This document shows positions 44,656 to 45,213 of a DNA stretch of 64,000 nucleotides, piece after piece. Within the stretch, counting starts at the first letter, position 1; each line of letters starts with the position of its first letter. The notes beneath the pieces are model-generated. The model worked only from the letters and a program-made list of their open reading frames with translations. It made no database searches and was not told where the DNA came from. The translations under genes were made by a program, and so were the position numbers. The DNA is taken from IMG/VR virus record IMGVR_UViG_3300032167_002310. The stretch is one strand, 5' to 3'. This stretch comes from a virus (taxonomy: Duplodnaviria; Heunggongvirae; Uroviricota; Caudoviricetes).

Positions 44656-44694
44656 TGGAGCTGGCGACAGGAGTCGAACCTGCAACCTGCTGAT
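44656..44694 (-). tRNA. 3' exon-like half of a tRNA gene interrupted in the anticodon loop (positions 38-76 incl. CCA)
   Basis: ATCAGCAGGTTGCAGGTTCGACTCCTGTCGCCAGCTCCA: anticodon-stem 3' strand, variable loop, T-arm, acceptor 3' strand CGCCAGC. Confidence 0.55.
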
Positions 44695-45182
44695 TTGTTA
44701 GTCAATGCCTTAGTTACTTCCTCCTCGAATTATTTCCAATCGTTTAGAAAGTTCATAATCTTCTGCAAAGCAGATACCAGTTTTTTGTCCGTTTTTAGGT
44801 GGAGCAAATCTTAAGGTTTTAGTTACTGAACATTCTGAAACTGGGATTAAGTAACACTTACCATTCCAGTAAGTCGCAAAGTAATCAATTTCATCAGCAT
44901 TATAGCGTATATTTTTCACCCCAGTGGAATTTACATGAGAACTTCTACAAGAGAATTCTATTACTTTGGGGTCGCCATTCTTGATAGACGAAGTCTTAAC
45001 CTGAACTCTAATCAATTTTCCATCTACATCAGCAATCATATCATATCGAGAATTTTCTCCAAAAGGGACACTCACATGACAACCATGCTCGTAGAAAGCA
45101 GTTAAACATTGTAATTCAGTTAGATTTCCTTTTTGTTTAGCAGTTAATTCCATATCAACTTTCACTAAGGTTTGTCTAACAA
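44695..45182 (-). mobile_element. 488-bp insertion with 14-15-bp imperfect terminal inverted repeats carrying a nuclease ORF, inserted in a tRNA anticodon loop
   Basis: TTGTTAGACAAACC at one end and GGCATTGACTAACAA at the other (inverted), abutting tRNA halves on both sides; too small for a group I intron core. Confidence 0.5.
44710..45165 (-). CDS. PD-(D/E)XK-fold nuclease (Hjc/YraN-like), putative mobile/homing endonuclease inside the tRNA insertion
   Basis: about 147-151 aa; KQKGNLTELQCLTAFYEHGCHVSVPFGENSRYDMIADVDGKLIRVQVK fits G-x3-E...D-x(n)-(E/Q)-x-K pattern of Holliday-junction-resolvase-like nucleases. Confidence 0.45.
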   Translation of the reverse strand: MKVDMELTAKQKGNLTELQCLTAFYEHGCHVSVPFGENSRYDMIADVDGKLIRVQVKTSSIKNGDPKVIEFSCRSSHVNSTGVKNIRYNADEIDYFATYWNGKCYLIPVSECSVTKTLRFAPPKNGQKTGICFAEDYELSKRLEIIRGGSN

Positions 45183-45213
45183 GTCAGCTGCTCTGCCATT
45201 GAGCCACGCCAGC
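45183..45213 (-). tRNA. 5' exon-like half of the interrupted tRNA (positions 1-32)
   Basis: GCTGGCGTGGCTCAATGGCAGAGCAGCTGAC: acceptor 5' strand pairs perfectly with CGCCAGC of the 3' half; canonical D-arm. Confidence 0.55.

Follow-up and report, generated by a model that had tools for sequence, protein, structure and literature searches.

A 483-nt ribozyme-less intervening sequence in a phage tRNA-Thr(UGU) gene suggests protein-dependent tRNA splicing

Can a tRNA gene that is split in its anticodon loop by an insert too small to hold a ribozyme still give rise to a tRNA, and if so, how would the insert be removed? The question is raised by a locus on the minus strand of a 64,000-nt stretch of DNA from a virus of the Caudoviricetes (hereafter the window). 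A tRNA cut in the anticodon loop needs resealing in order to function. The accepted view is that tRNA introns of bacteria and their viruses splice themselves, as group I or, rarely, group II introns, and that splicing catalysed by proteins is an archaeal and eukaryotic trait. Judged from sequence, the 483-nt insert in this phage tRNA-Thr(UGU) gene is, with somewhat better than even likelihood, a mobile protein-spliced intron of an uncharacterised kind, whose exons would plausibly be joined by the phage RNA ligase. The signatures of the window are bacterial (sigma-70, SH3-domain endolysins, gyrase), related contigs are binned with Bacillota, and no close relative was found among GenBank phages.

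Two halves of one tRNA and the junction between them

The presence of two tRNA halves at this locus, recognised in an earlier note made from the letters of the window, was confirmed by the sequence itself, by ARAGORN, which called a single tRNA with a 483-nt intron when introns were allowed, and by the minimum-free-energy (MFE) fold of the full 558-nt transcript, a cloverleaf with a long extension of the anticodon stem (Table 1). Segment by segment, the 5' exon reads GCTGGCG, UG, GCUC, AAUGGCA, GAGC, A, GCUGA, CUUGU and the 3' exon AA, UCAGC, AGGUU, GCAGG, UUCGACU, CCUGU, CGCCAGC, U, CCA. The insert had previously been put at 488 bp, and five nucleotides of the anticodon loop had been thought unrecoverable. 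Both points had to be revised in the light of uninterrupted alleles, one of which (L274) is nearly identical to the exons of the window. Those with the same stem carry the loop YYUGUAA in 117 of 120 cases (YUUGUAA in 112, CCUGUAA in 5), so that the loop is fully recovered, the junction lies uniquely at U36|A37 and the insert measures 483 nt. The joined loop, CUUGUAA according to the uninterrupted alleles elsewhere, identifies the gene as tRNA-Thr(UGU). The junction chosen by ARAGORN itself, CUUG|AAA ("Ser-UGA"; "Asp-GUC" in relatives), was rejected because the uninterrupted alleles, the short variable arms, U1-A72/G73 and G3·U70 fit only 36|37. The anticodon stem had also been described as identical to that of the tRNA at 52317-52392; the latter is UCAGC/GCUGA, which is its mirror.

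Thr(UGU) is the sole U34-type tRNA missing among the 37 uninterrupted tRNAs of the window array. The interrupted gene is thus the only Thr(UGU) of a near-complete set, which also includes an uninterrupted Thr(GGU). Four larger contexts, each with 17-23 tRNAs, have no Thr tRNA of any kind besides the interrupted gene.

Table 1. Features of the interrupted tRNA gene and candidate processing genes in the window.
Feature	Coordinates	Strand	Content	Basis
5' exon of tRNA-Thr(UGU)	45179..45213	-	acceptor 5' strand, D arm, anticodon-stem 5' strand, loop nt 32-36 (CUUGU)	sequence; ARAGORN with introns allowed; uninterrupted alleles including L274
3' exon	44656..44695	-	A37 A38, anticodon-stem 3' strand, variable loop, T arm, acceptor 3' strand, U73, encoded CCA	sequence; ARAGORN; uninterrupted alleles
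Intervening sequence	44696..45178	-	483 nt, between anticodon-loop nt 36 and 37	sequence; ARAGORN; alleles; no Rfam intron or ribozyme match
Rod 5' strand	45164..45188	-	anticodon stem 27-31, U33-U36, intron nt 1-7, unpaired A (45171), helix 3 (CCUUAGU)	MFE fold; covariation in 56 relatives
Rod 3' strand	44689..44714	-	helix 3 (ACUAAGG, holds stop codon), CA bulge, UUG, A, CUA, ACA (pairs with anticodon UGU), A37, A38, anticodon stem 39-43	MFE fold; covariation
Conserved AAA of 1x2 internal loop	45171..45173	-	intron nt 6-8	(near-)invariant columns 16-18, alignment A2
Conserved CAUUG opposite AAA	44703..44707	-	intron nt -12 to -8	columns 33-37, A2; also in Ile and Ala introns
PD-(D/E)XK homing endonuclease ORF, I-Ssp6803I family	44710..45153	-	147 aa + stop	PF11645; PDB 2ost; predicted fold
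Phage RNA ligase, candidate sealing enzyme	29909..31342	-		phrog_968 E=1.5e-63; weak Pfam RNA_ligase and PHA02142 OB matches
P-loop AAA_28 protein adjoining the ligase, possible polynucleotide kinase	29354..29881	-
Calcineurin-type metallophosphoesterase, possible end-healing enzyme	34031..34954	-
Junction sequence expected in the joined tRNA			...GCUGACUUGU then AAUCAGCAGGUUGCAGG...
Intron-bearing allele, example			exon 1 = GCTGGCGTGGCTCAATGGCAGAGCAGCTGACTTGT; own exon 2 = AATCAGCAGGTTGCAGGTTCGACTCCTGTCGCCAGC

The encoded endonuclease and the spread of the intron

The insert encodes a homing endonuclease of the I-Ssp6803I family. Its ORF matched PF11645 over profile positions 3-137 of 138 (E=5e-29; 101.5 bits at a cut-off of 26.1) and PDB entry 2ost by sequence (E=7e-6), and its structure model (pLDDT 87.8) was matched by Foldseek to 2ost_A/B with E ~1e-10 and TM 0.74-0.77. 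The catalytic residues YD38...Q51-V-K53 align with YD...QVK of 2ost, and D38, Q51 and K53 are invariant in two alignments, of 14 and 26 homologues. Hjc resolvases were the second-best fold matches (TM ~0.45), and the fold search returned no match to EndA. Of the 147-151 aa assigned earlier to this PD-(D/E)XK-like nuclease, the 147 aa that follow from the start codon of the family, ATG at 45153, were retained and the longer start was not.

The split-tRNA arrangement does not reflect chance, since it recurs in 121 of the 131 evaluable related ORFs (at least 45% identity), always with the ORF between nt 36 and 37 of a tRNA. These relatives come from gut and rumen phage contigs and target tRNAs for Thr, Asn, Ile, Lys and Ala. 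When 91 distinct genes were spliced in silico, normal tRNAs resulted in all of them (Thr-UGU 65, Asn-GUU 15, Ile-GAU 5, Thr-AGU 3, Lys 1, Ala 1, UUA 1) and the acceptor stem was paired at 7/7 positions in 85; this intactness is partly due to selection, because the set consists of intron-bearing tRNAs detected by ARAGORN and filtered for at least four anticodon-stem pairs. Moreover, introns 90-97% identical to one another reside within exons that are merely 68-81% identical, which indicates that the intron moves among diverged tRNA genes by homing. No syntenic empty site was found in a close relative with the neighbouring 116-aa ORF and the intron-less loci as queries, the tRNA arrays being too rearranged, and a pattern scan for ORF-less mini-introns, whose existence would have favoured splicing, gave only chance matches among the matches listed.

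A conserved exon-intron helix and the absence of a ribozyme

Only 25 and 14 nt of the 483-nt insert are non-coding, in agreement with the earlier view that it is too small for a group I core. An Rfam search of positions 44300-45600 at E<=10 revealed neither Intron_gpI nor any ribozyme, and at the gathering threshold the window and 20 related loci yielded no introns, only tRNAs, ROOL and tmRNA. A ribozyme hidden within the ORF was ruled out by the uniform synonymous diversity, as the entropy at synonymous sites is even along the ORF when 69 introns are compared. The lack of a group I model match, together with this even variation, shows that a ribozyme is absent; there is also no room for a self-splicing one. 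Known intron classes were rejected on similar grounds. A group I intron would carry a P3-P9 core, which the covariance models did not find, and some 200 nt of structured RNA or more, whether outside the ORF or overlapping it; its splice signatures (a 5' U·G pair and a terminal G) are missing as well, given that U36 pairs with A in 56/56 introns and the last intron nucleotide may be A, C, G or U, covarying with nt 34. For a group II intron, Rfam gave no domain V/VI match, and the ORF encodes a nuclease, not a reverse transcriptase.

The conserved element of the locus is instead a helix that joins exons and intron. As the earlier note had described, the imperfect inverted repeats can pair and extend the anticodon stem: the two ends of the intron form a helix with each other, its last three nucleotides bind the anticodon, and the stem thereby grows into a rod of ~22 bp. 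Both splice sites lie in one continuous, bulge-free helix, 3 bp apart and with a 3-nt 3' stagger, and the AAA/CAUUG internal loop is about one helical turn away from them. Across 56 relatives, 95.7% of the alignment cells are paired and compensatory changes occur at 16 of the 21 pairs; the covariation score of 0.58 compares with 0.24 in shuffles (0/500 reach 0.58), and slid registers give 20-40% pairing. The anticodon covaries with the last three intron nucleotides across seven anticodons. G·U pairs are frequent in this pairing (G35·U in 19/56 Thr introns, U35·G in 14/15 Asn/Lys introns), and the variation is mostly on the intron side, with the exception of three A34 (AGU) genes, in which the intron partner changes to U. 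On the exon side, G35, U36, A37 and A38 are fixed across the Thr alignment. In the Asn/Lys-type introns RNAalifold recovers the same rod de novo, with another loop motif, UGAC/CUGAUGU, at the same position. A strict co-evolution of the rod motif with the protein clade was not upheld, as AAA/CAUUG occurs in both major protein clusters.

The inverted ends could also be read as the hairpin of a single-stranded DNA element, which the Hjc-like nuclease would excise and insert like a transposon, the gene being restored in DNA. The closeness of the protein fold to Hjc resolvases agrees with such a reading, which we nevertheless regard as most improbable. PD-(D/E)XK nucleases hydrolyse DNA and cannot rejoin it, and the near-identical introns at diverged homologous sites fit homing. 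The "inverted repeats" are an RNA-level helix, in which the frequent G·U pairs (G·T in DNA) have been selectively kept as RNA pairs. Comparison with the uninterrupted allele further shows a clean insertion with no duplicated bases, and a DNA transposon or insertion sequence was rejected; a transposon-like origin is unsupported because there is no target-site duplication. Two options had first been offered for the insert: a compact homing element resembling an intron, or the loss of the tRNA through insertion of a transposon-like element. The former has gained from the homing nuclease, the mobility, the recurrent 36/37 site and the covarying helix, and the transposon-like origin in the latter has found no support.

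Another alternative is that the rod with its internal loop, perhaps together with the tRNA body, is an unrecognised small ribozyme that cleaves both junctions, with or without a ligase. The AAA/CAUUG and UGAC/CUGAUGU loops are conserved across endonucleases ~45% identical, as a catalytic or recognition motif would be. However, the same position is served by two different loop motifs, fewer than 40 nt are non-coding, no ribozyme was detected in Rfam at E<=10, no conserved structure was seen inside the ORF and the terminal signatures of group I are absent (no omega-G; U36 pairs with A, not G), which makes self-splicing very unlikely.

The main contender, less likely in our judgement than splicing but a serious one, is a selfish insertion that is never spliced. 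The endonuclease gene would then inactivate the tRNA, and the tRNA body and rod would be kept for the benefit of the endonuclease mRNA, which would be strongly transcribed from the tRNA operon, have its ends processed by RNase P and RNase Z and be shielded by the tRNA scaffold; Ponchon and Dardel reportedly found in 2007 that tRNA scaffolds stabilise inserted RNAs. Neither a splicing enzyme nor a ribozyme can be named, the ORF is also found standing alone, behind a Shine-Dalgarno sequence of its own (L021, L326, L037), and a few intron-bearing genes are clearly degenerate (L314/L315, L049, the second gene in L372 and perhaps L295). The intact-looking exons, too, can be explained by continual re-invasion of fresh alleles by homing or by selection for the scaffold. 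On the other hand, a scaffold needs neither a helix that reaches the exact junction nor a paired anticodon, whereas the three anticodon pairs covary across seven anticodons. In 91/91 genes the exon side retains U33, A37 A38 and a legitimate anticodon, the loop always reconstitutes to exactly 7 nt, and the gene concerned is the only Thr(UGU) of the window and the only Thr gene in the four other arrays. Protein-dependent splicing is the reading we prefer: roughly a hundred relatives have no room for a ribozyme and all share the covarying exon-intron helix, which suggests an undescribed protein-dependent tRNA splicing in bacterial viruses.

A possible splicing pathway and its relation to known systems

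In DNA the endonuclease would, as its family implies, cleave tRNA genes that lack the intron at or near the anticodon loop, and repair by recombination would then copy the intron into the cut allele. In the transcript the rod places both splice sites in one helix; if the insert is a protein-spliced intron, a protein endonuclease would cut both rod strands and an RNA ligase would reseal the anticodon loop to give CUUGUAA. That excision and ligation take place at all, and by which enzymes, is what we infer. The cuts could be made by the intron's own PD-(D/E)XK protein, for which the rod would mimic in RNA the geometry of its DNA target, or else by an RNase of the host or the phage. Against this pathway stands that PD-(D/E)XK homing endonucleases are not known to cut double-stranded RNA and that the rod's right arm is unlike the right half of the DNA target. 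The splice-site geometry matches no known RNA-processing enzyme, because the helix is continuous and bulge-free with a 3-nt 3' stagger; RNase III leaves a stagger of 2 nt and EndA requires a bulge-helix-bulge (BHB). Sealing would most plausibly fall to the phage's own ligase, encoded 14 kb from the intron. This ligase, the P-loop protein, the phosphoesterase and a Thg1-like enzyme adjoin the tRNA array. Ligase homologues are found on at least seven intron-bearing contigs, the enzyme being common to the whole phage clade and not specific to intron carriers, and a PDB sequence search with the ligase and the P-loop protein gave no matches. We see an even chance that these introns of gut-Bacillota phages form a new ribozyme-less class, spread by homing, located at tRNA position 36/37 and removed by protein via the rod, possibly with the intron's own PD-(D/E)XK enzyme cutting RNA with a DNA-like 3-nt stagger and the phage ligase resealing it.

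The closest known system is the cyanobacterial tRNA-fMet intron with I-Ssp6803I, which shares the endonuclease family (PF11645; TM 0.74-0.77 to 2ost), the anticodon-loop target and a mobile intervening sequence. In 2001 Bonocora and Shub reportedly showed that I-Ssp6803I cleaves to either side of the anticodon, producing 3' overhangs of 3 nt; this geometry is that of the two splice sites in the phage rod. However, the cyanobacterial intron, at 33/34, is of group I and splices itself (PMC13011429), whereas the phage intron lacks a ribozyme, lies at 36/37 and occurs in gut-Bacillota phages, in Thr, Asn, Ile, Lys and Ala tRNAs. The BHB introns of archaea are likewise ribozyme-less, their junctions are joined by pairing that involves the anticodon and some carry an endonuclease ORF; they are spliced by protein. 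The phage insert was rejected as a BHB intron since, in the covariation-supported structure, two 3-nt bulges around a 4-bp central helix are lacking: the helix runs unbroken through both sites, which are 3 bp apart, and conserved irregularities of the rod are confined to 32·38 and the 1x2 loop 8 nt from the sites. It also differs in position (36/37, not 37/38) and in its bacterial host, and to our knowledge EndA is not known from bacterial hosts.

Intervening sequences of bacterial 23S rRNA resemble the phage intron in that their ends are paired in a long stem and some contain ORFs, but they are cut by RNase III with a stagger of 2 nt, not 3, and the rRNA fragments are not religated. In the anticodon-loop repair of T4 (PrrC, Pnkp, Rnl1) a phage RNA ligase reseals a tRNA break, and genes for a ligase, a P-loop protein and a phosphoesterase are likewise present in the window; the T4 system, however, mends damage to host tRNA-Lys and removes no intervening sequence. 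The "enigmatic" tRNA introns of Lak megaphages (Devoto et al. 2019; PMC6784885) also lie in the anticodon loop, including that of Thr-UGU, are not group I, and their mechanism is unknown. Unlike the phage introns described here, they are ~90 nt long, have no ORF and no pairing of the intron 3' end with the anticodon, and their hosts are Prevotella.

We found no description of these phage tRNA introns in the literature searched. If protein-dependent splicing is true, the bacterial world would gain its first pathway in which tRNAs are spliced by enzymes and not by themselves, and a bacterial virus would splice by means of a protein endonuclease and of a ligase that has so far been credited with a repair role only. 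The other outcome would be a homing endonuclease gene that persists by using a tRNA as its expression scaffold while disabling that tRNA. Either one bears on how mobile introns lose their ribozymes or manage without them, and on the proposal that BHB introns are descended from group I introns. These interrupted tRNA genes escape standard tRNA finders, so that phage tRNA repertoires are under-counted, and their ORFs are annotated as stand-alone endonucleases, an example being the 80 PDDEXK_5 genes of the Jug phage study (PMC12880540). The interrupted gene of the window was itself overlooked by the tRNA finder at default settings.

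The interrupted tRNA-Thr gene and its recurrence

The earlier note described a tRNA gene split in the anticodon loop, and our analysis both confirmed and sharpened this observation. When introns were allowed, ARAGORN recognised the two halves as a single tRNA with a 483-nt intron. The earlier note had also proposed a search for the uninterrupted allele and for further copies of the element, and viral and metagenomic contigs contained both. Scanning viral contigs for CAGAGCAGCTGA-N7-TCAGCAGGTT revealed 120 uninterrupted alleles (loops UUUGUAA 95, CUUGUAA 17, CCUGUAA 5), one of which (L274) was almost identical to both window exons. 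As CUUGUAA can arise from CUUGU + AA only, the junction is uniquely U36|A37, which defines the insert and identifies the gene as tRNA-Thr(UGU). Thr(UGU) is the sole U34-type tRNA absent from the window's uninterrupted array, and G1-C2 and U73 of the split gene are also found in the Thr(GGU) gene of the window. The CAT tRNA at 52317-52392 was wrongly credited with an identical anticodon stem; its stem, UCAGC/GCUGA, is the mirror image.

Coordinates of the interrupted tRNA gene and of other window features
Feature	Coordinates	Strand	Description
5' half	45213-45179	-	GCUGGCG UG GCUC AAUGGCA GAGC A GCUGA CUUGU
Insert	45178-44696	-	483 nt
ORF, 147 aa	45153-44710	-	PF11645 (PDDEXK_5)
Purine-rich tract	44696-44730		AAGGAGG-like
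3' half	44695-44656	-	AA UCAGC AGGUU GCAGG UUCGACU CCUGU CGCCAGC U CCA
Uninterrupted tRNA genes	41.2-56.6 kb	-	37 genes
tRNA-like sequence	45943-46059	-	117 nt
Unusual genes beside the tRNA array	21602-24094, 38620-40179, 24936-25865, 26327-28119, 17129-18601		

More than 700 homologues (65-92% identity) were present in metagenomes, and 238 loci were retrieved. At an identity of at least 45%, 131 ORFs were evaluable; 121 of these were located inside a tRNA detectable with introns allowed, and several of the remaining ten also lie in tRNAs (e.g., L357 in an Ala gene, and L029 and L054 with longer introns). The insert was found between nt 36 and 37 in every case, the register being fixed from the T arm. 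When 91 distinct genes were joined in silico at 36|37, ARAGORN called normal tRNAs (Thr-UGU 65, Asn-GUU 15, Ile-GAU 5, Thr-AGU 3, and one each of Lys-UUU, Ala-UGC and UUA). The acceptor stem was 7/7 paired in 85 of these products, an intactness partly due to selection, as the set consisted of ARAGORN-detected intron-bearing tRNAs filtered for at least 4 anticodon-stem pairs. Moreover, the tRNA bodies fit the anticodons (U1-A72/G73 in Asn genes, G3·U70 in Ala genes). Of the distant family members with <38% identity (haloarchaea, Acidobacteriota, Actinomycetota), only 4 of 73 evaluable ones were in tRNAs.

Two such introns may also occur together on one phage contig, each in a different tRNA (Thr+Ile, Thr+Lys, Ala+Thr), as in L372 (5990-6560 and 9939-10498), L047 (1441-1988 and 2799-3341) and L089 (199-750 and 1446-1985), and GIY-YIG endonuclease genes are present in their arrays. 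On another contig, L045, ARAGORN with introns allowed predicted tRNAs with 830-nt and 862-nt inserts (502-1408 and 1980-2916), neither of which matched the group I model. In L009 and L059 (2950-3460 in L009) the intron lies in a Gln-like tRNA (U1-A72, G73), whose joined loop UUUUAAA has the anticodon UUA and would decode the stop codon UAA. Contig L359 (1193-1265) has a tRNA(UUA) without an interruption, and tRNA(CUA) suppressors were detected in several related contigs (L007, L008, L367, L368), which suggests that stop codons are probably recoded in some of these phages.

Intron class and the exon-intron helix

The non-coding part of the insert amounts to 25 nt before the start codon and 14 nt after the stop codon. 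No intron or ribozyme match was obtained in an Rfam scan of 44300-45600 at E<=10, or at the gathering threshold in the whole window and 20 related loci. Synonymous-codon entropy, calculated from the aligned codons of 69 distinct Thr-type introns, was high and even along the ORF, with 1.4-2.1 bits at invariant Gly, Leu, Arg and Pro positions. This indicates that the coding region conceals no conserved RNA. We regard a small unrecognised ribozyme as very improbable.

None of the three group I features tested was found, and this class was rejected; its end signatures are missing from the insert, in which U36 is paired with A and the intron ends in a variable base. A BHB intron was rejected as well, the tested structure being absent, as were a group II intron and a transposon. 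Comparison of the window insert with the uninterrupted allele revealed no target-site duplication.

In the fold of the full 558-nt precursor the cloverleaf is intact and the anticodon stem is extended into a rod. There, U33-A37 is followed by UGU:ACA, in which the final three nucleotides of the intron pair with the anticodon. Beyond it come three further pairs, an A·A mismatch, CAA:UUG, a 1x2 loop (A vs CA) and CCUUAGU:ACUAAGG. In 56 distinct Thr-type sequences 95.7% of the cells were paired and both sides had changed in 16 of 21 pairs; the covariation score was 0.58 in comparison to 0.24 after shuffling (reached by 0/500 shuffles), and registers slid by 1-3 nt gave only 20-40% pairing. RNAalifold recovered the same architecture de novo from 15 Asn/Lys-type sequences, in which 14 of 17 pairs had undergone compensatory change.

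The three nucleotides at the 3' end of the intron tracked the anticodon: UGU occurred with ACA, AUA or AUG, GUU with AGC, GAU with AUC, UGC with GCA or GUA, UUU with AAA, UUA with UAA, and AGU with AUU. The frequency of G·U pairs (G35·U in 19/56, U35·G in 14/15) implies that the pairing acts in RNA rather than in DNA. Excision at the DNA level appears scarcely credible. Changes in the anticodon-intron pairs were mostly on the intron side, except in three A34 (AGU) genes where the intron partner has become U, and G35, U36, A37 and A38 were invariant; the exon bases are thus constrained by more than pairing. At a distance of 8 nt from the 5' splice site, an internal loop (5'-AAA / 5'-CAUUG) is conserved among Thr, Ile and Ala introns that encode proteins with only about 45% identity; in Asn and Lys introns its place is taken by YUGAC / CUGAUGU.

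The endonuclease and intron mobility

The ORF product matched PF11645 (E=5e-29) and, by sequence, I-Ssp6803I (PDB 2ost; E=7e-6, YD...QVK aligned). Its AlphaFold model (pLDDT 87.8) matched 2ost over the full length (TM 0.74-0.77), followed by Hjc resolvases, with no tRNA-splicing endonuclease among the structural matches. D38, Q51 and K53 are invariant across the family. With every testable feature present, the enzyme belongs to the I-Ssp6803I family. Its cyanobacterial members are known only inside group I introns at tRNA-fMet position 33/34 (PMC13011429), and 80 PDDEXK_5 genes were given as stand-alone, with no tie to tRNAs, in the Jug-phage study (PMC12880540).

Variants of the endonuclease gene also occur outside intact tRNAs (L338 about 150-700, L021 1400-2000, L037, L326). 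In L338 only anticodon stem-loop remnants flank the gene (AUUGA UUUGU ... AA UCAAU). The L021 gene has an intact tRNA-Thr(UGU) on one side and a 3' fragment of a tRNA on the other. The purine-rich tract at the 3' intron end, immediately before the stop codon, shows DNA-level conservation in the window and its relatives, in reading frames differing between subfamilies.

tRNA exons normally evolve far slower than an ORF. Here, introns 90-97% identical were found within exons only 68-81% identical (L320 vs L323: intron 97%, exons 68%; window vs L279: 91% and 71%), which implies that the introns move between diverged tRNA genes.

Splicing, comparison with known systems and phage setting

On the sequence evidence we lean towards a mobile, ribozyme-less tRNA intron that would be spliced enzymatically. 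In favour of function, the loop is always restored to the canonical 7 nt, the anticodon is always in keeping with the tRNA body, and the helix extends exactly to both junctions. Gene content points the same way: the window has no other Thr(UGU) gene, and in four larger contexts (17-23 tRNAs each) the interrupted gene is the sole Thr gene. So does the predicted sealing capacity beside the array, where an RNA ligase (phrog_968, E=1.5e-63) is encoded next to a P-loop protein, together with a metallophosphoesterase, an RNase T-like exonuclease and a Thg1-like enzyme. Homologues of the ligase were detected on at least 7 intron-bearing contigs, yet they are common to the whole clade. Counting against function, the helix runs unbroken through both splice sites, and their 3-nt 3' stagger fits neither RNase III (2-nt stagger) nor, lacking bulges, EndA.

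The main rival explanation, possible though less favoured, is a selfish insertion that stays unspliced and has the tRNA as its scaffold. Further points against function are that some carriers are degenerate (T loop deleted in L314/L315, a stem strand mutated in L049, an odd T loop in the second L372 gene, and mismatched halves in L295, which may be an assembly chimera), and that the gene also stands alone with a Shine-Dalgarno sequence of its own (L021, L326, L037). The intactness of exons could come from continual homing into fresh alleles or from selection for a tRNA scaffold benefiting the endonuclease mRNA. Either outcome, spliced intron or scaffold insertion, is new biology.

If the intron is spliced, its own nuclease could be the splicing endonuclease. 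Bonocora and Shub (2001) reportedly found that I-Ssp6803I cuts DNA on both sides of the anticodon, with 3' overhangs of 3 nt as the product. The splice sites of the rod, the 5' one following nt 36 and the 3' one opposite the 33/34 step, by coincidence have exactly that geometry; moreover, except at 32·38, the left arm equals the DNA target's left half. These two likenesses make the nuclease a candidate RNA-splicing enzyme. The right arm is unlike the DNA target, and this family is not known to cleave RNA.

The archaeal protein-spliced intron with a homing endonuclease gene is closest in logic, and T4 anticodon-loop repair in sealing chemistry. For phage tRNAs, introns outside group I have a single precedent, the 'enigmatic' introns of Lak megaphages (PMC6784885), which differ in being short and ORF-less, with another junction structure. 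Our literature search found no paper describing the present class.

The source is a large phage of a Gram-positive host, with gyrase, SH3-domain endolysins, PhoH, a sigma-70 factor, RNA ligase, Thg1-like enzyme and Ro/TROVE-like protein among the products of the flanking genes. No close relative was found among GenBank phages; related contigs are viral (100-200 kb, gut and rumen samples) or binned with Bacillota. The unusual genes beside the array encode a protein with major-vault-protein shoulder and repeat domains, a Ro/TROVE-like RNA-binding protein (DUF2828/DUF7788, phrog_850), a Thg1-like 3'-5' polymerase, Sir2, NADAR and a nicotinate/nicotinamide phosphoribosyltransferase, and jointly look like an RNA-repair/RNP and NAD-metabolism set. 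On phage contigs, tmRNA genes adjoin tRNA arrays (L029 3102-3382; L041 1003-1425). ROOL RNA (RF03087, up to 366 bits), absent from the window, lies directly beside intron-bearing tRNAs in L370 (9374-9945, ending within 5 nt of the interrupted tRNA-Thr start), L092 (847-1426) and L056 (3111-3411).

The tRNA-like sequence of the window scored 38 bits with the Rfam tRNA model and was not called by ARAGORN. It has a normal acceptor stem (GGGGAUU/AGUCCCC) and T arm, an encoded CCA and about 48-55 extra nt between the anticodon region and the T arm. The extra stretch is explained either by a giant variable arm that follows a GUUAUAA loop (anticodon UAU) or by an insert with CGCGU/ACGUG closing it; the sequence may be a second, ORF-less interrupted tRNA.
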